The notes beneath the pieces are model-generated. The model did no database searches. It was not told where the DNA came from and saw only the letters and a list, made by a program, of their open reading frames with translations. Positions 31,457 through 38,955 of a stretch of 64,000 nucleotides of DNA are shown here, one piece after another. Every line of letters begins with the position of its first letter. Positions within the stretch are counted from its first letter, which is position 1. The position numbers were made by a program, and so were the translations under genes. The stretch comes from Bacteroidales bacterium. GTDB lineage: Bacteria; Bacteroidota; Bacteroidia; Bacteroidales; UBA4417. Where the stretch lies: assembly GCA_038237165.1 (NCBI GenBank), contig JBBRYZ010000003.1, positions 2,898 through 66,897 on the forward strand, in the 5' to 3' direction.

Positions 31457-33187
31457 TTATTTCCCGCACCAGGCACTTACTTCTTCGAGGCGTAATGAAG
31501 GAATATCGAGTTTTAGTTTTTTGCGTAATCCACTCAGTTCGTGAAGTAATTTGTTCGGATTTGCTTCCTTGAGGTCAGCTGGTGCTTTAATCCCGGCTTT
31601 GCGCAATACCGGAACCCAGTCAGTTGGAATTCCAATAGCTACAAATTCTTCATCAGTTGCTCCGGTAACAACAGTTGCTTTTTCGGGGCGCATCTGAGGA
31701 AAGAAAAGTACATCCTGAATGGATTGTTGATTTGTCATTATCATTGTTAACCGGTCGATTCCGATACCCAGACCGGCTGTTGGGGGCATTCCATACTCAA
31801 GTGAACGGAGAAAATCTTCATCAAGAACCATGGATTCATCATCGCCACGTTTTCCTAGTTCAAGCTGTTCTTCGAAACGGGCACGCTGGTCGATAGGATC
31901 GTTCAATTCGCTGAAAGCATTGCATAGTTCCTTGCCGTTACAGATAGCTTCGAAGCGTTCAACAAGCCCGGGTTTGCTGCGGTGCTTTTTGGCAAGCGGC
32001 GACATTTCGACCGGGTAATCAGTAATAAACGTGGGTTGTATAAGCTTTGCCTCGGCAGTTTCGCCAAATAGCTCATCGATAAGCTTGCCTTTGCCCATGC
32101 TCTCATTGGTTTCGATATTGAACTTCTTGCAAGTAGCACGAAGTTCGTCTTCCGTCATTTCCGAAATATCTACACCTGTAAAATGCTGAACCGCTTCAAA
32201 CATAGTAAAACGTTTCCAGGGACGTTTGAAATCTATTTCATTATCTCCTACCTGAACTTTGGTTGTCCCGTGCAGATCAATGGCAATACGTTCAACCATT
32301 TCCTCCACGGCATTCATCATCCATTCGTAATCTTTGTAAGCAACGTAAAGTTCCATTTGAGTAAACTCAGGATTATGAAACCGGTCCATGCCTTCGTTGC
32401 GGAAGTCTTTCGAAAATTCAAAAACTCCATCATAACCACCAACAATCAACCTTTTAAGATATAACTCATTGGCAATACGCATATACAGCGTCATGTCGAG
32501 GCTGTTGTGGTGCGTTTTGAACGGACGGGCTGCCGCGCCGCCATAAAGTGGCTGCAGAATAGGAGTTTCAACTTCGAGATAACCTTTGCTGCTCAGGAAG
32601 TTGCGCATGGTATTTACGAGCCGGGTGCGTTTCACAAACACTTCGCGGACTTCAGGATTCACGATAAGGTCAACGTAACGTTGGCGGTAGCGGACTTCCG
32701 GATCGCTGAAAGCATCAAAAACCTGTTCGTCTTTTTCTTTTACAACTGGCAGAACGCGTAATGATTTACTGAGCAGTTTCAGCGATTTCACATGAATGGA
32801 AATCTCGCCCATCTGGGTAATAAAAACAAAACCGCTTACTCCAATAATATCGCCTATATCCATAAGGCGTTTGAATGCCGTATTATAGAGGGTTTTATCT
32901 TCGCTTTCGCAAATATCGTCGCGCTTAATGTAAAGCTGAATACGTCCGCTACTGTCCTGCAAATCCACAAAAGAGGCGGCACCCATAATGCGGCGTGTCA
33001 TTATGCGGCCGGCAATACTTACATCCTGGAAAGCGTGATGGTTCTCCGGATTGTATTCGGCAAGTATAGTCTGTGCTGTAACGTTAATGGGGAAACTTTC
33101 AGCCGGATAGGGATTTATACCCAGTGCAGCCAGTTCGGTTAATGAATTACGTCGTATTTGTTCCTGTTCGCTGAATTCAAGTTGCAT
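31457..33187 (-). CDS. lysS: lysine--tRNA ligase (class II)
   Basis: [16 protein letters not shown]..., class II motifs [15 protein letters not shown] and GIGIDRL. The start at 33187 is preferred over the track start at 33238 because a TATCTTTG box sits between them. Confidence 0.95.
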
Positions 33188-33201
33188 TTTGAAATTTTTT
33201 G

Positions 33202-33209
33202 CAAAGATA
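33202..33209 (-). promoter_or_regulatory. -7 box TATCTTTG upstream of lysS
   Basis: Exact TAnnTTTG on the minus strand, 14 nt upstream of the ATG at 33187. Confidence 0.35.
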
Positions 33210-33317
33210 GGAAATAGCAGCAATTGGGGAAACACCAACGTAAGAAGAGTTCATAAAGCTTCAATCGAATTGGTTATGAGCCGGAAGAAAAGGTTTGAAG
33301 CGCCAGCCGGGTTAGCA

Positions 33318-33974
33318 TTATCGTGTTTTTATCTTGAATTTCCCTTTCCCATTCTTAAATTTGGCAATCCAATCTTTTCGAAGGTTACCCAAATTATCTT
33401 TTGCCAGCCAACCAGGTATCTCATCAGTTATTGCACTAATTGGGTCTTCAATAGGCCAATACTTTTTGTGGACACCGTTAATAGGAAGATAAGTTTCAAA
33501 TTTCACGATTCTGCTTTTAAACAGATGACATTCTTTTTGCACTTTAAAAATAACAATAAATGGATAGTATTTAACAGCACCCTTATAAAATACAGAATCT
33601 TCTATCCCATTAATTCGATTTATATCTGTAACAATTTTGCTCTTATTCGAAACCGGTTTGCTTAACGTAATTTTGTTATTCAAAATGATAAACAAATTTC
33701 TGTTTTGAACCTGAATGTACAAAATGGAGTCTTTCGGCAGTTCATGCGCATAAGCAATCGAAACTACTGCAACACTATAAGCATCATGTCCTTCTTCATT
33801 AATTAATTTAACTGCGTACGGATCGGAATTCAAATGATCAGGGAGTTTCGACATATAAACAAATTTATCCAGGATCTGAACAAATTCATTTTCATTAACT
33901 TGGAATGGTTTTTGACAAAGTACCAGTTTTGCTGAAGACAGGATAATAATCAGAATCAAGAATATTTTATTCAT
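33318..33974 (-). CDS. hypothetical secreted protein
   Basis: 218 aa. Signal peptide ..LVLC|QKP. No family recognised. Confidence 0.4.
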   Translation of the reverse strand: MNKIFLILIIILSSAKLVLCQKPFQVNENEFVQILDKFVYMSKLPDHLNSDPYAVKLINEEGHDAYSVAVVSIAYAHELPKDSILYIQVQNRNLFIILNNKITLSKPVSNKSKIVTDINRINGIEDSVFYKGAVKYYPFIVIFKVQKECHLFKSRIVKFETYLPINGVHKKYWPIEDPISAITDEIPGWLAKDNLGNLRKDWIAKFKNGKGKFKIKTR

Positions 33975-34218
33975 TTCAGTGCTTTAAATTTATGAATTTA
34001 TATGCTAAGGCAATAAATCACGTTCGATCCCATCTTATTTTCTGATGCGTGCAGCAGAGAGTTCTTTACTTCTTTCAAATGTACGATTGATCTTTAAATA
34101 CTATTCGATTTCAAGTAATATTATCTCCAAAGTTTTTAACTTTATTGAAACTGCACGTATCAGAATATATGATTCACCAACCGGAGTTATGATTACATAC
34201 AAATCAATATATCAATGT

Positions 34219-35214
34219 TTAGTTAATTGAGCTACTCTGTTTAGATTTATCAATCCAAAGCAATTTTAGCTTCCATTTGTTAATAGTAAAATATTTTATT
34301 GAATCGGCATACTTATCAATATCAACCCCTTGTGAAGAAAATGCCTGATTTGAATCTTCTTCATCTGTTTCGGCAATAATAACAGCCGGGTTATACGTGT
34401 TAATCACATCTTTGTCATTAAAACAATCTTTCCAAACCGGGAAGGAAATTGCTTTGCTTTTCCAGCTCAATGAAGGAGCCCATGCGCCAATAATCGGACT
34501 ATTTTGAAAGTTATATTTACCCAAATAAGTATTGACCTCCGAAATAACAAATGTTCTTCTTCCATAAGATGAGCCATAATCAATGCCATTTTTGATTCCA
34601 AGAGAAAATAAGATTAAAAAGGATAACGCTTTAATACTATAAGCCATCGGATTTTTCGTTTTTATACTTATTAATTCGTACAACACCAGCGATATTAATA
34701 ACCCCATTGCAAAATATAAACTTAACAAATACCTGGAGGGCAGATATGTCATCGACAACTTATGCATTTCCAATAGTATCCAACATGTTAATCCTATAAA
34801 AAGAAATCTGAACCGAGTAGATTCAGTAAAGAAAGTGTAAATCAGACCCGAGAGAAATAATATATAAAATGAAATTGTGTACCATTTTAAATAGTTATTA
34901 TAAAAGATAAAATTCAGAATAAAATTTAAATGGTGTGACAAATTCTGTATGCTGACAAATCTGCCAGTTGCTGTATTAGCAATTACATAATCATAAAATT
35001 CCTTATTGGGCAAATACCAGGCAAAGAAATAGATTGCCAGATAAATTAACAGGAAAAGAGAAGTATAGAATAACTGCTTAAGCAATAGTTTTTTATCAGT
35101 TGTCTTTATCAGCATGAAAACCAGTATTGATAAAGGAAGAATAAGTATGCTGTAAATGAACTGAATTTTTAGAAAATATACGATTGATATGAAAGTAGCC
35201 GATAAAAAACTGGA
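34219..35214 (-). pseudogene. 5'-truncated GT-C-type (ArnT/PMT-like) membrane glycosyltransferase gene
   Basis: Polytopic membrane ORF with a soluble C-terminal domain. The first 18 codons of the track ORF (MHGLKILIARIANPRQRG) are read from the REP element, so the native N-terminus is missing. Confidence 0.45.
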
Positions 35215-35272
35215 CCCCCGCTGGCGCGGATTTGCAATCCGTGCTATTAAGATTTTCAATCCGTGCAATTAG
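35215..35272 (+). repeat. REP copy 1
   Basis: cccccgctggcgcggatttgcaatccgtgctattaagattttcaatccgtgcaattag. Hairpin gcgcggatt/aatccgtgc with one G:T pair. Confidence 0.8.
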
Positions 35273-35297
35273 CCCACCTATCTATCTTTCATATTTA

Positions 35298-35510
35298 TCA
35301 GATAACTAATATATCCAACAATCCATTGTTCCCTGCATAATCAGTAGCACTGCTATATACATATTCTTCAGCTCTAAAAACCAGTCCAACCTCAACGGGA
35401 TTCTGATGTATATAAGTTAGTTTTTGAGCTATAACCGCATTGCTCCAAAGTTCTACAGGATGATTGTCGGCCCGCCAGAACCTGTTACCCTCTTCCGTTT
35501 CAAACTGTTT
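35298..35510 (-). pseudogene. 3' fragment of a duplicated RAYT gene
   Basis: Encodes ..QFETEEGNRFWRADNHPVELWSNAVIAQKLTYIHQNPVEVGLVFRAEEYVYSSATDYAGNNGLLDILVI, near-identical to the C-terminus of the intact copy. It lacks the HUH half. Confidence 0.8.
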
Positions 35511-35571
35511 CCCCCCCCGCTGGCGCGGATTTGCAATCCGTGCTATTAAGATTTTCAATCCGTGCAATTAG
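35511..35571 (+). repeat. REP copy 2
   Basis: Same sequence as copy 1, 299 bp downstream, immediately 3' of the intact RAYT gene. Confidence 0.8.
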
Positions 35572-35596
35572 CCTACCTATCTATCTTTCATATTTA

Positions 35597-36124
35597 TCAG
35601 ATAACTAATATATCCAACAATCCATTGTTTCCTGCATAATCAGTAGCACTGCTATATACATATTCTTCAGCTCTAAAAACCAGTCCTTCTTCAACGGGAT
35701 TCTGATGTATATAAGTTAGTTTTTGAGCTATAACCGCATTGCTCCAAAGTTCTACAGGATGATTGTCGGCCCGCCAGAACCGGTTACCCTCTTCCGTTTC
35801 AAACTGTTTCACCAACCACTCTTTCCTGCTTTCTCTTTGGTTTTCTGCAATTGCCTTTAATACAGCTTTACTGGTAAACTTCTTATAATCGCGAAGAATA
35901 TCAGATAATGTATGTCCTTCCTCTGCACGAACGATCAAATGAACATGATTAGTCATAATGCACCATGCAAAAATTTCCAACCCTTTGTTCTTTTGGCAAT
36001 AGGCCAGGTTATCAATAAGTATATCCTTGTATTCGTTGCGGGTAAAAACATCAACCCAGCCATGCACTGCAAACGTTACAAAATATACTCCATCCGGATT
36101 ATGGAATTTATATTTCCTGCTCAA
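35597..36124 (-). CDS. REP-associated tyrosine transposase (RAYT; IS200/IS605-like Y1 HUH enzyme)
   Basis: 175 aa. HUH motif TNHVHLIV, catalytic-Tyr region LTYIHQNPV. Flanked by inverted REPs. Confidence 0.85.
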   Translation of the reverse strand: MSRKYKFHNPDGVYFVTFAVHGWVDVFTRNEYKDILIDNLAYCQKNKGLEIFAWCIMTNHVHLIVRAEEGHTLSDILRDYKKFTSKAVLKAIAENQRESRKEWLVKQFETEEGNRFWRADNHPVELWSNAVIAQKLTYIHQNPVEEGLVFRAEEYVYSSATDYAGNNGLLDILVI

Positions 36125-36160
36125 CCTGCTTTTTTTTGTAAAGGTAATTGTTTTACGACT

Positions 36161-36195
36161 GTACCGGCACGGATGGCAAATCCGCGCCAGCGGGG
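36161..36195 (-). repeat. REP copy 3 (inverted)
   Basis: The reverse complement is ccccgctggcgcggatttgccatccgtgccggtac. Confidence 0.75.
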
Positions 36196-36633
36196 TTTAT
36201 AGAACCAGGGATGTGGGTATTTATTAAAAAATTTCTTTCCGCGATTTACACTTTTCGCATTGCCATCAATAAACAATCCTCTCCATCCAAAATTAAAATA
36301 AAGGTTAGCTGAGTTACTGTTTACCCCGTCATCAGAGCCTATTTCAACGAAAACTTTATTCTCCATTCCAATAACTGAAAAAATAAACAATAGCTTGCCA
36401 TCTTCTTCGAATTGAGAAAATACTCTATATCCTGTGTCAGAAATTGACGGGAGTTCGTTCTTCTTAGAAAGTTCCTGATAATAATGATATAATTGCCTCT
36501 GCCCGATTTGAACAGATGGTGCAAATCTATTTCTAACCTTCAGTATAAGGAGATTATCTTTGAGAAAGTTTTTAATCATATTCTTCATTTTGTTCCATTT
36601 TTTTAATTTTTGATTCTCAGAGATTAATAACAA
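36196..36633 (-). pseudogene. 3'-truncated SAM-dependent methyltransferase-like gene
   Basis: VFSQFEEDGKLLFIF...VFVEIGSDDGVNSNSANL...GLFIDGN resembles motif I of FkbM/class I methyltransferases. The reading frame leaves native sequence at ..PHPWFYKP and continues into REP copy 3. Confidence 0.4.
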
Positions 36634-36722
36634 AGATAGGAAAATGAACTGAGATGGGAATTAGAGTTTAGCGGGTGATGATGAACAAATCTCCTTAACT
36701 TTGAACCGGTAAAAAAAATAAA

Positions 36723-38237
36723 ATGAAAGGAAACTTCATGCTCCGCTTTAAAAAAATATTCTCAAAACCCCGTACTGTAATCATTGCAGCTGTTATTCTA
36801 TTCTTTCCGGTTCTTTTTTTAGGCAATCATATCAGCCACGACTGGGGTGATGATTTCGCGCAGTACATTCATCAGGCAGCAAATATCGTTCATAGCATTC
36901 CACAATCGGAAACCGGTTTCATTTACAGCCAGCAAAATTTTATCGGCCCGCAAGCGTACCCTTCTGGTTTCCCGCTTATTCTGGCACCGGTATATGCTGT
37001 GGCTGGTAACAATATAACAGCTTTCCTTTTATTAATTTCTGTCCTGTATATTACACTTGGATTAGTAATGATTATATATTTCAGGAATTATTTTTCGTGG
37101 ATTCCTGCATTTATTTTGGCAACAATTTTTGTTTACAATCCTCAAATGATTCTTTTTAAAGGGGAAGTGATGTCTGAAATACCATTTACAGTTTTGCTGG
37201 TTACCTGCTTTATTTTATATGAAAAAGTGAAATTTGCCGATCCTTTACATTTCTTGGTTTTAGCCCTTTTATCCGGGTTTCTGATTATGGTAAGATCAGC
37301 AGGATTTATTTTTGTTGCAGCAGTTATTCTTGACCAATTAATCATTTTAAGAAAAAGAAAAATATCCATAAAGGATTTTGCTATCCGTGGTGGTATATTC
37401 GTATCTATTCCGATTTTGATCTATTTACTGTTCAATATCTTCATCTTCAGGATGCCTTCAGGAAGTGGAATCAGCGATTATCTCAGCTTCTTTCAATCGG
37501 GGAAATTAGTCTGGATGTTTCCTGGGAATTTTTATCATTATATAGAAGCCATCCGGTTGTTATACATGCCACAAAGCGGGAACCTTATGGGAATTTCAGT
37601 ATTACTTTCGTCGGTAATGCTTACATTGGTGCTGCTTGGATTCTTACACAGAATATTCCAGGGTCCACAGATAATTGATTGGTTTTTTATTTTTTACATT
37701 ATCATGTTGCTGCTTTTCCCGAATACAAATTCGGCCACAAGGCTATTGATTCCATTAGGATTTATATTCCTGATTTATTCTGCCACAGGTTTCAAAAAAC
37801 TTCAGCTTTTGCCGCAACTCGCTTCTCAAAATAAAGCAATCATTTTCGGAGGTTTGATACTGCTTATGTTTTTACCTGGCATTATGAAAATTGCCCGCGC
37901 CGGTGAAAACATACAGGAAGGGCCTCAAAAGAAAACTGCGGTTGAAACTTTTAATTTTATAAGTAAAAATGTTCCTCCCGACTCGGTAGTTGTTTTTGAA
38001 AAGCCACGGGCGCTTGCGTTATACGGAGGTTGCAAGAGTATGGTCGATCCGCGCACCAACAATCCAACGCTTTTCCATTTGCAGGTTGTGAAGGCAAAAG
38101 CATCGTACCTGCTTATCAATAACAACTTAACGGGTGAGTTGATGTTGCGTTATTCCAAGGTAATGCAAAACCGCCTTAACAAACAATTTGAAAATAAGGA
38201 TTTTGTGCTTTATAAGATCAACCCTGTGATTCGTTAA
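36723..38237 (+). CDS. GT-C-type polytopic membrane glycosyltransferase-like protein
   Basis: 504 aa, more than 10 predicted TM helices, C-terminal soluble domain. ArnT/PMT-like architecture; the family call is tentative. Confidence 0.5.
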   Translation: MKGNFMLRFKKIFSKPRTVIIAAVILFFPVLFLGNHISHDWGDDFAQYIHQAANIVHSIPQSETGFIYSQQNFIGPQAYPSGFPLILAPVYAVAGNNITAFLLLISVLYITLGLVMIIYFRNYFSWIPAFILATIFVYNPQMILFKGEVMSEIPFTVLLVTCFILYEKVKFADPLHFLVLALLSGFLIMVRSAGFIFVAAVILDQLIILRKRKISIKDFAIRGGIFVSIPILIYLLFNIFIFRMPSGSGISDYLSFFQSGKLVWMFPGNFYHYIEAIRLLYMPQSGNLMGISVLLSSVMLTLVLLGFLHRIFQGPQIIDWFFIFYIIMLLLFPNTNSATRLLIPLGFIFLIYSATGFKKLQLLPQLASQNKAIIFGGLILLMFLPGIMKIARAGENIQEGPQKKTAVETFNFISKNVPPDSVVVFEKPRALALYGGCKSMVDPRTNNPTLFHLQVVKAKASYLLINNNLTGELMLRYSKVMQNRLNKQFENKDFVLYKINPVIR

Positions 38238-38955
38238 GCACATCGCTAAGCACACGCACCGATTTTATTTCTCCAAAATTGGCGATATGAATCCTGAAAT
38301 AGCCAAGCATTCCGGCAAGTAATTCGTTTCGCATCACCGAATTGATGCTTAGGGCAGTTACACCGGCATTCAGAGTTGTGAGTACCTCGGAAAGGCTGTT
38401 GCTCAGCGGTGATGATAAATAATAGGGATGACCGGGCGGATGAGCACAGAAATGTCCTTCTTCCATATCAAAATAAGTATCGTTTTCACTGAAATTATTA
38501 TGCGGATCGAAACCCAGGAACTGTGTAAGGCCAATAGTAAAAGCCAGCGGAAAACCTGCAACTGAACCGGTGGCCCGATCCAGGTTCAATATCGCATCTT
38601 CAAGATACCCATAAAGATTCGGGTCGGCCATCTGAGCTGAAACAGAGTGTGAAAGCAATTCGCTGATATAAATACTAACGGCAGTTTTAGCCATATCCGT
38701 AGCTATACCATTGAGCTGGTATTCGCATGTGGCATCACGCATTACACGCATACCTTCCCCTTCTTTGTGATTGGCAACCAGTTGTATTACCGACAAGGGC
38801 GCGAAAAGATTTCGCTTAATCCGCGAACCTTTTTTACGTACACCTTTGGCAATATACGTCTGCAAACCAAGCTGCTCGGTAAATACCCTGGCAATAATGC
38901 TGGTTTCGGAATAATCCATGCAATGTAGCACTATGCCTTTGGTGGAGAGTATCAT
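38218..38955 (-). CDS. recO: DNA repair protein RecO
   Basis: 245 aa. N-terminal OB fold TKGIVLHCMDYSETSIIARVFTEQLGLQTYIAKGVRK. Confidence 0.88.
   Translation of the reverse strand: MILSTKGIVLHCMDYSETSIIARVFTEQLGLQTYIAKGVRKKGSRIKRNLFAPLSVIQLVANHKEGEGMRVMRDATCEYQLNGIATDMAKTAVSIYISELLSHSVSAQMADPNLYGYLEDAILNLDRATGSVAGFPLAFTIGLTQFLGFDPHNNFSENDTYFDMEEGHFCAHPPGHPYYLSSPLSNSLSEVLTTLNAGVTALSINSVMRNELLAGMLGYFRIHIANFGEIKSVRVLSDVLNESQG

Follow-up and report, generated by a model that had tools for sequence, protein, structure and literature searches.

We found that a 64,000-nucleotide (nt) stretch of a Bacteroidales genome (positions 2,898 to 66,897 of contig JBBRYZ010000003.1, assembly GCA_038237165.1; the whole stretch is called the window below) contains a REPtron. 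That is, one intact gene for a REP-associated tyrosine transposase (RAYT) is bracketed by cognate inverted repetitive extragenic palindromes (REPs), with the feet of the hairpins (CC-GCT-G) pointing outward. What is new here is the local anatomy of this element. All rearrangements adjacent to the REPtron break exactly at the outer ends of its hairpins. These comprise a tandem duplication of the REP together with the end of the RAYT gene, and the truncation of both flanking genes. Experiments on RAYTs and REPs have been done almost only in Escherichia coli and Pseudomonas, and the locus forms a compact record of break and rejoin sites beside a REP that lacks the GTAG tetranucleotide.

An intact RAYT gene

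A sequence-only reading of this stretch had pointed to a 175-amino-acid (aa) HUH/Y1 open reading frame (ORF) with the motifs NHVHLIV and YIHQNPV, and this gene is indeed present (Table 1). The HUH residues NHVH occupy positions 59-62, the catalytic tyrosine motif YIHQNPV positions 138-144 and an SS tail positions 158-159. Against the NCBIfam equivalog hidden Markov model for REP-associated tyrosine transposases (NF047646) the protein scored 106 bits, above the cutoff of 80, while its Pfam match (Y1_Tnp, 39.7 bits) places it at the superfamily level only. When we aligned the protein with 16 homologues (17 sequences in total), the catalytic Y138 and the residues N59-H60-V61-H62 were invariant. 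Since the RAYT of the window retained every invariant column of this alignment, we regard the gene as intact.

The top sequence match among proteins of known structure in the PDB was E. coli TnpA-REP (4ER8), with a marginal E value of 0.01. AlphaFold returned a model of moderate quality (pLDDT 61.7, with the C-terminal 55 residues below 50). Using this model as a query, all 30 significant Foldseek matches in the PDB (E<1e-3) were HUH-Y1 transposases, 4ER8 included (TMq 0.52). The predicted fold supports membership in the HUH-Y1 superfamily, although it has no power to separate a RAYT from IS200.

We also considered a decaying insertion sequence of the IS200/IS605 family whose terminal hairpins are merely REP-like. 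The Pfam label of the protein is only 'Transposase IS200 like', the fold search placed ISDra2 and IS200 structures slightly above 4ER8 by E value, and every REP in the window is attached to the RAYT gene, all of which would suit such an origin. However, the NCBIfam IS200 model (NF033573) reached 29 bits, below its cutoff of 55, whereas the RAYT model exceeded its own. The tyrosine motif YIHQNP is that of class 2 and not the Y[IV]ENQ of class 1, the hairpins are inverted while IS200/IS605 ends lie on the same strand, and the hairpin is dispersed without a gene in many genomes. Clustering with ordinary IS200 TnpA, which the sequence-only reading had named as the outcome that would speak against a REP system, was thus not observed for the protein, and we consider this origin extremely improbable.

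More than 3000 homologues of the RAYT were found at E < 1e-10, the closest being 89% identical. Many of them are already annotated as 'REP element-mobilizing transposase RayT' or 'REP-associated tyrosine transposase', for example in Sunxiuqinia, Maribellus, Draconibacterium and Mariniphaga, and the nearest named homologues belong to genera of the Prolixibacteraceae. Of the described groups, subclass 2.6 of the Bacteroidetes (Quentin et al. 2018) appears to be the one that the protein resembles most, judged by its motifs and by the type of its REP. Because this class was published in 2018 and its members are routinely annotated, the element of the window belongs to a described kind. The novelty outside the Proteobacteria that had been implied was overstated, as a Bacteroidetes RAYT subclass with essentially this hairpin was on record (PMC6006769). 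Only five distant records of RAYT homologues were found in plasmids, giving no sign of a plasmid vehicle.

The start codon of the RAYT gene is TTG (36122-36124). Among 19 homologous genes, 18 begin at ATG and the remaining one at GTG, and in the window no in-frame ATG that could serve instead precedes the HUH motif. An unusual codon was also seen in two relatives flanked by the same REP as in the window (loci from other genomes are given by our own L and P handles). The RAYTs of metagenome-assembled genomes of Flavobacterium sp. (L070, 4053-4595, minus strand) and Moheibacter lacus (L067, 4138-4680, plus strand) have one in-frame stop each in an otherwise intact frame, both at the same codon (HLKRD TAA KYKVWQ and YLKRP TAG TYKVWQ), where relatives have Gln. 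This could be a case of parallel nonsense mutations or a regulated read-through site.

A REP hairpin that folds well on one strand only

Inverted REP copies lie on either side of the RAYT gene, as had been read from the sequence. Their arms are 29 nt long and 97% complementary, and they are separated from the gene by 43 nt on its upstream side and by 25-53 nt on its downstream side. A 28-nt core, CCCGCTGGCGCGGATTTGCAATCCGTGC, occurs at 35217-35244 and 35516-35543 on the plus strand and, with one mismatch, at 36167-36194 on the minus strand; it gave no match in dinucleotide shuffles of the window. We refer to the upstream copy as REP_L and to the two downstream copies as REP_R and REP_R'. REP_L differs by one loop-closing A>C change, and the top-strand REP sequence in the window is AAACCCCGCTGGCGCGGATTTGCAATCCGTGCCGG. 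The foot reads CCGCT-G or CCGAT-G, so that the canonical 5' GT[AG]G tetranucleotide is absent.

The stem holds a conserved G·T wobble, and because of it the hairpin forms well on one strand only, in agreement with the earlier claim. Folded as single-stranded DNA, the plus strand formed a 9-bp hairpin that includes the G·T pair, and its complement a 6-bp stem only. REP_L folded on the minus strand only (-9.8 kcal/mol, z = -2.2). With a covariance model of the REP, one strand reached 45.9 bits, compared with 12.3 bits for its complement. In addition, a 16-nt half-REP consisting of the loop and the 3' arm alone follows 6 nt past the full REP on the RAYT side, and the copy that belongs to REP_R sits between REP_R and the RAYT stop codon. 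Comparable half-REPs, sometimes two, follow REPs in L024, L026, L060 and L065.

Neither a regular expression for the generic architecture nor the unfiltered covariance model detected dispersed REPs in the other 63 kb of the window. The covariance model returned only the three RAYT-attached REPs, and its next match (12.3 bits) was the opposite strand of the same sites. The REP density in the window is low. A search of positions 33000-38500 against Rfam returned nothing at E ≤ 1. The inner stem-loop GGATTTGCAATCC resembles the anticodon arm of tRNA-Ala, and publications in which this string turns up deal with tRNA; we judged this a coincidence, given that the loop has 3 nt within a conserved 10-bp hairpin and that TGT and TTT loop variants are both common.

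The same hairpin across Bacteroidota

We scanned one genome per species for the exact 22-nt core GGCGCGGATTTGCNATCCGTGC of the REP. It was present in at least 120 loci of at least 93 assemblies, nearly all of them from Bacteroidota. Hosts among the matches listed are Bacteroidales, Prolixibacteraceae, Marinilabiliaceae and Flavobacteriales (Salinimicrobium, Gillisia, Flavobacterium, Myroides, Moheibacter), with one match in Chloroflexota (L052). A match in Hydrogenedentota (L019) lies in an apparent coding frame with, by eye, a recombinase-like motif and was taken as a chance coding match. Among 2.9 million viral contigs there were three exact matches to the core, which gives no sign of a phage vehicle.

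About 20 loci among the matches listed contain a RAYT homologue (39-85% protein identity). All of these share one layout: a REP on the gene strand, the RAYT, then a REP on the opposite strand, with feet outward and often several REPs per side; L123, whose RAYT is 88% identical, has this layout too. The core also occurs away from such genes. Among the matches listed, 78 copies could be tested, each having over 1.5 kb of fetched sequence on both sides; 63 of these had no RAYT within 1.5 kb, and 44 of the 63 were outside long open frames. The recurrent layout and the dispersal of the core in other Bacteroidota, together with a RAYT score above the curated cutoff, bear out the REPtron reading. Two close RAYT relatives on long contigs (85-88% identity; L123, L127) lie among RHS-repeat/phage-like genes versus Por-secretion-tail genes. 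Thus, the unit is not syntenic among close relatives.

In several related loci (L001, L003, L005, L031 and L075) adjacent REPs with two different stem variants are paired in inverted orientation, and direct tandem arrays occur as well. In Salinimicrobium nanhaiense (L015, 6099-7084), 13 REP copies are arranged head-to-tail with an 89-nt period, each unit holding a second palindrome (CTGTCAGGG...CCGCTGACAG), and similar arrays with periods of about 145-175 nt were seen in L079 and L074.

Copies picked by their outer anchors only showed compensatory variants of the inner stem (CGATT/AATCG, CAATT/AATTG, GGGTT/AACCC, AGATT/AATCT, ACATT/AATGT). Over 25 distinct sequences the 10-bp helix was 92% paired, compared with 32-45% in slid registers, and four of its ten stem pairs had changed on both sides. 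We counted 16 double-change cells versus 4.7 in shuffles, none of the 500 shuffles being as high; columns 9-12 and 26-29 are fixed by the selection pattern and uninformative in this test. The covariation indicates that the stem-loop is maintained by selection. In copies anchored on the inner stem, the 3' arm reads GTGC almost always and GCGC in one. G·C takes the place of the wobble pair in about one copy out of 230, a count for which one copy per locus had been chosen by a GTGC-containing pattern. RAYTs of Bacteroidales and Flavobacteriales that are only about 40% identical share a single 22-nt hairpin in which the G·T wobble is fixed.

Rearrangements at the outer ends of the REPs

Next to the RAYT gene, a block made of the REP and the last 71 RAYT codons is repeated in tandem with the 299-bp period that the sequence-only reading had given (Table 1). 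About six substitutions had been noted between the units. We counted seven differences, 6 of them in the 296 positions outside the junction and one at the junction. The array ends at the REP outer end on one side and at RAYT codon 104/105 on the other. At the junction (...caaactgttt/cccccccc gctgg) codon 105 of the RAYT meets the C-run with which REP_R starts, and the truncated RAYT copy does end at a REP boundary as described. Eight C (35511-35518) precede REP_R at this junction and five precede REP_R'. In coding terms, an E146V codon and three synonymous changes set the truncated copy apart from the intact gene. Unequal crossing-over between two REPs was ruled out as the cause of the duplication, since it would be expected to leave a third REP at 35813 and none is there.

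The truncated RAYT copy is in frame with a REP-encoded leader and forms an 89-aa ORF (35298-35567, minus strand). This frame begins in the half-REP, runs through REP-encoded codons (..ARIANPRQRGG) and continues with RAYT residues 105-175. Its putative product would carry the tyrosine motif without HUH.

The duplication and the intact REPtron together make up a 981-bp REP block, which lies between two truncated genes on the same strand, with both breakpoints at REP outer ends. Since Pfam and NCBIfam searches of the flanking ORFs gave no matches even at E = 10, the truncations were established by alignment with homologues. On the REP_L side is an FkbM-like methyltransferase gene, for which 96 homologues were found; full-length ones have 245-255 aa, and one carries PF05050 (FkbM methyltransferase). 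Where these read on as ...HPWFYKPKFxCAKVTRENIN..., the copy in the window enters the REP after ...HPWFYKP. Its open frame continues through REP_L to 36121, and the C-terminal ~100 residues are absent from the whole window. On the other side, the alignment of a membrane-protein gene begins 4 nt from the outer end of REP_R', and its first 167 codons are absent from the window. No paralogy of this gene with its 504-aa neighbour was found. The three junctions in the window (duplication, methyltransferase gene and membrane-protein gene) share one form, namely arbitrary sequence followed by C-run-GCTGG. For annotation, the two genes flanking the REPtron are pseudogenes created at REP ends.

Two FkbM-like homologues, L121 (8001-8973) and L122 (8001-8865), each carry a frameshift near residue 170-205 that breaks the gene into two ORFs, and the one in L122 is surrounded by DDE and rve transposase genes. 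The gene family seems prone to decay.

Table 1. Coordinates of the REPtron, its duplication and the truncated flanking genes in the window
Feature	Position	Strand	Remarks
Intact RAYT / TnpA-REP gene, 175 aa	35597-36124	-	NF047646, Y1_Tnp, alignment, Foldseek
Upstream REP (REP_L)	36167-36195	-	38.1 bits (covariance model); on the gene strand, foot first, CCCCGCTGGCGCGGATTTGCcATCCGTGC
Downstream REP (REP_R)	35514-35543	+ (opposite to gene)	45.9 bits (covariance model)
Second downstream REP (REP_R')	35215-35244	+	Core identical to REP_R; 45.9 bits (covariance model)
Half-REP GATTTTCAATCCGTGC	35550-35565	+	Partial repeat with 22-nt period (tandem-repeat row 35528-35570)
Half-REP of the duplicated unit GATTTTCAATCCGTGC	35251-35266	+	Tandem-repeat row 35229-35271
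Tandem duplication, 2 x 299 bp	35215-35513 and 35514-35812		97-98% identical, zero indels
Truncated RAYT copy (codons 105-175 and stop)	35298-35510	-	Tyr motif kept, without HUH
3'-truncated FkbM-like methyltransferase gene	36196-36633	-	~146 codons of ~250; ends ...HPWFYKP at the REP_L outer end
5'-truncated membrane-protein gene	34219-35214	-	Corresponds to residues 168-498 of the 498-aa homologue in L129 (ORF 897-2393); 79% identity in the alignment to residues 168-493

Related loci contain duplications of the same kind. In L037, whose RAYT is 82% identical, the last 15 RAYT codons and REP_R are tandemly repeated (82-nt period, 1.9 copies, 90% identity); their junction, ...CCAGCTGGGGG/GATTATGC, falls on the outer G/C-run of the REP. 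In L123 a run of nine G marks the outer end of the REP, after which spacer and REP occur once more, and L077 has a 25-nt partial REP repeat. As these cases are independent, REP-bounded tandem duplication is recurrent, and it is a plausible route by which REP arrays beside RAYTs grow. The notion of the REP boundary as a preferred breakpoint is supported in part. The sequence-only reading had proposed a recent REP-targeted event. Its targeting gains support from the three junctions at REP outer ends and the independent case of L037, but the dating fails: with 6 of 296 positions (2%) differing between the units, the duplication is not fresh.

Further peculiarities were seen in these relatives. 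The downstream REP of L123 (6560-6640), with its outer run of nine G, contains a 36-nt loop insertion (gcacggatt[attcggctgcgcctcatgagatcgcttcgctaagtt]acaaatccgcgcc). In L037 (1-1467) the first 115 nt are repeated at the contig end, so that it represents either a circle or a tandem array that was collapsed, with a unit of 1352 bp; besides the REPtron, this unit has two short ORFs of 100 aa and 77 aa on the opposite strand, which by eye look like a RelE/ParE-type toxin-antitoxin pair. Moreover, four internally deleted RAYT relics lie between REPs (L071, 2373-2589; L028, 816-990; L032, 1916-2185; L039, 3767-3873). Their 5' breakpoints vary (aa 35, 23, 52, or the REP), while all 3' breakpoints fall within codons 136-143 (YIHQNPV), where the coding sequence CAGAATCCGGT is loosely like the REP 3' arm GCAATCCGTG.

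Possible origin of the junctions

The best overall explanation, and in our view a probable one, is a REPtron whose junctions arose through action of the RAYT at the REP foot. By analogy with IS608/ISDra2 and the E. coli TnpA-REP paradigm, the RAYT would bind to a REP hairpin folded in single-stranded DNA, as exposed for instance at replication forks, and nick beside the REP foot. Tyr138 would become linked to the 5' end on the REP side, and the enzyme would then rejoin this end to a free 3'-OH. If a wrong 3'-OH were used, such as a nearby nascent-strand end, a junction of arbitrary sequence and REP foot would result. The window would hold three such products, namely RAYT codon 105 joined to REP_R, methyltransferase codon ~146 joined to REP_L and membrane-gene codon 168 joined to REP_R', and the REPtron block would have replaced about 0.9 kb formerly present between two neighbouring glycan-modification genes. 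We propose more tentatively, and as a possibility that is itself rather doubtful, that strand transfer by RAYTs left the junctions of the window, L037 and L123 as its natural footprints, the Tyr-linked 5' end of a REP having been ligated to a stray 3'-OH. The position of the REP-foot junctions may point to where the GTAG-less REP class is cut.

The main rival dispenses with the enzyme: replication would stall at REP hairpins extruded on the lagging-strand template, and both the duplication and the flank deletions would result from slippage or template switching at the base of the hairpin. The C-runs have 4, 5 and 8 residues in the window, and corresponding runs have nine G in L123 and five residues in L037. 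Such variable lengths, along with the half-REP repeats, show that slippage does occur at REP sites. The short partial REP repeats of the window (the half-REPs), L024 and L077, whose periods are 18-25 nt, have the look of local slippage, and the internal RAYT deletions of L071, L028 and L032 have non-REP breakpoints, with ATAT microhomology at least in L071. However, the 299-bp junction offers no useful microhomology (at most one C). In addition, the constant partner of the junctions is the outer edge of the conserved foot, whereas slippage should prefer the base of the stem, and the polarity is the same in the three junctions of the window and again in L037. As the source of these rearrangements, we hold slippage to be somewhat unlikely.

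A second alternative involves two insertions of a REPtron or REP, one into the methyltransferase gene and one into the membrane-protein gene, after which one deletion would have removed the DNA between the outer end of the first REP_R and codon 105 of the second RAYT. Three simple events would then account for both truncated genes and for the 2% divergence of the units. Clusters of several REPtrons or relics within 5 kb exist in the relatives L071 and L028, and the occurrence of close RAYT homologues in unrelated gene contexts shows that the unit does relocate. Yet this scheme still requires a deletion that ends exactly at a REP outer end, and hence a REP-specific break. It also has to explain units in perfect 299-bp register with zero indels, and REPtrons have been described as not transposing as units (PMC6006769). 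We regard it as clearly unlikely.

An assembly artefact, in which repeats were collapsed or mis-joined at REPs to give a false duplication and false truncations, was also weighed. Most close RAYT homologues come from contigs about 1 kb long with REPs at or near their ends, so REP repeats do break metagenome assemblies, and the ends of the L037 contig overlap (circular or tandem). Against this, the two units of the window carry six private differences, the genes on both flanks share a strand and belong to one kind of gene cluster, and the independent assembly of L037 has the same type of structure. Moreover, the junctions between gene and REP lie outside the shared repeat and cannot be made by a k-mer mis-join. 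An artefact is very unlikely.

Several observations weigh against RAYT action at the REP foot as the source of the junctions. Hairpins alone can stall forks and cause slippage, so junctions at REP boundaries are no proof of an enzyme, and the varying lengths of the C-runs at the junctions (4, 5 and 8) are a slippage signature. To our knowledge, cleavage has been shown for no subclass 2.6 protein. The RAYT relic of L039 adjoins the inner (3') end of a REP and not the foot, which makes the polarity of breaks mixed. As no dispersed REP was found in the window, the spread of REPs in this particular genome is unproven. We infer that the two truncated genes were once neighbours, and an intact orthologous site was not found: the methyltransferase homologues P0004 and P0001 lie in unrelated contexts, and the membrane-protein homologues (L128-L130) are on contigs too short to reach a methyltransferase gene upstream. 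The assignment to subclass 2.6 has a blemish too, as the clade of the window has WR where the consensus has WQ. W117 is invariant and is followed by R, S or I across the clade, while Flavobacteriales relatives with the same REP do have WQ; 'WQ' is a consensus feature of the subclass and not its definition. Finally, the TTG start and the 2% divergence between the units argue against high current activity of the RAYT. Its frame is intact, so present activity may be possible, while the TTG start, the old duplication and the lack of nearby dispersed REPs give no sign of it.

If the junctions are indeed footprints of strand transfer, RAYTs of subclass 2.6 would actively build REP arrays by tandem duplication and would truncate or delete neighbouring genes. 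'Domesticated' transposases would then be a source of local genome rearrangement in Bacteroidota, and the junctions would provide a ready-made in vivo map of the cleavage site for the GTAG-less REP class.

Comparison with known systems

The TnpA proteins of IS200/IS605 elements (IS608, ISDra2) share the HUH-Y1 fold with the RAYT of the window. Hairpin recognition on one strand, the lack of a target-site duplication and 5'-phosphotyrosine chemistry would also be common to both, this being the assumed basis of the mechanism proposed above. The RAYT differs by its score below the IS200 cutoff and its class-2 tyrosine motif, and the hairpins differ in being inverted, whereas those of IS200/IS605 are both on the top strand, and in being dispersed without the gene.

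The E. coli REPtron (TnpA-REP, Y/Z REPs and bacterial interspersed mosaic elements, BIMEs) was reportedly set out by Ton-Hoang and colleagues in 2012. REPs occur about once per 8 kb in E. coli, versus no dispersed copy in 63 kb of the window. The E. coli TnpA-REP protein is that of PDB 4ER8 (Messing et al. 2012, PMC3479197). The two systems are alike in their single-copy HUH/Y1 gene, the inverted REPs and the imperfect hairpins with a conserved mismatch. Binding of the folded hairpin on single-stranded DNA by the enzyme would be a further likeness. Inverted pairs of stem variants that resemble BIMEs or REPINs are found in the loci with such pairs named above. Unlike the E. coli REPs, those of the window have the foot CC-GCT/GAT-G with no GTAG or GTGG, a short 10-bp stem and a 3-nt loop, and the similarity of the proteins is marginal.

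The closest known relatives are found in the classification of the TnpA-Y1 superfamily by Quentin et al. (2018, BMC Genomics 19:475, PMC6006769). Subclass 2.6 is mostly from Bacteroidetes; its members have a median length of 179 aa, the motifs NH[LIV]H, WQ and YIH[QN]NP and an SS tail, and the subclass was equated with RAYT Group 5 of Bertels et al. 2017 (PMC6006769). The genes are flanked by 'atypical' hairpins without GTAG, of which copies occur elsewhere in the genome (PMC6006769), and Bertels et al. 2017 described Group 5 RAYTs as flanked by moderately abundant 16-mers. The RAYT of the window matches this subclass in NHVH, YIHQNP, S158-S159, its 175 aa and its host phylum, although its clade is 7 residues shorter before the W motif than the Flavobacteriales relatives. 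For Flavobacterium johnsoniae, Table S1 of PMC6006769 gives CTTTGCGGGCACGGATTGCAAATCCGCGCAATCG, shown as CGAT-TGCGCGGATTTGCAATCCGTGCC, which is the reverse complement of ...TGCGCGGATTTGCAATCCGTGCCCGC; the hairpin of the window is essentially this REP, which belongs to a member of subclass 2.6 (ABQ05095.1). The entries for Spirosoma, Aequorivita, Zobellia and others in the same table (GCT[GA]GCGC-stem-loop-stem-GTGC(C), i.e. GCTGGCGC-stem-loop-stem-GTGCC) have the same architecture as the hairpin of the window. Beyond what is reported in PMC6006769 are the 22-nt core common across orders, the conserved G·T wobble and the REP-bounded duplications and truncations. The REP-foot junctions and the shared hairpin both supply defined substrates, along with specific predictions, with which subclass 2.6 could be tested biochemically for the first time.

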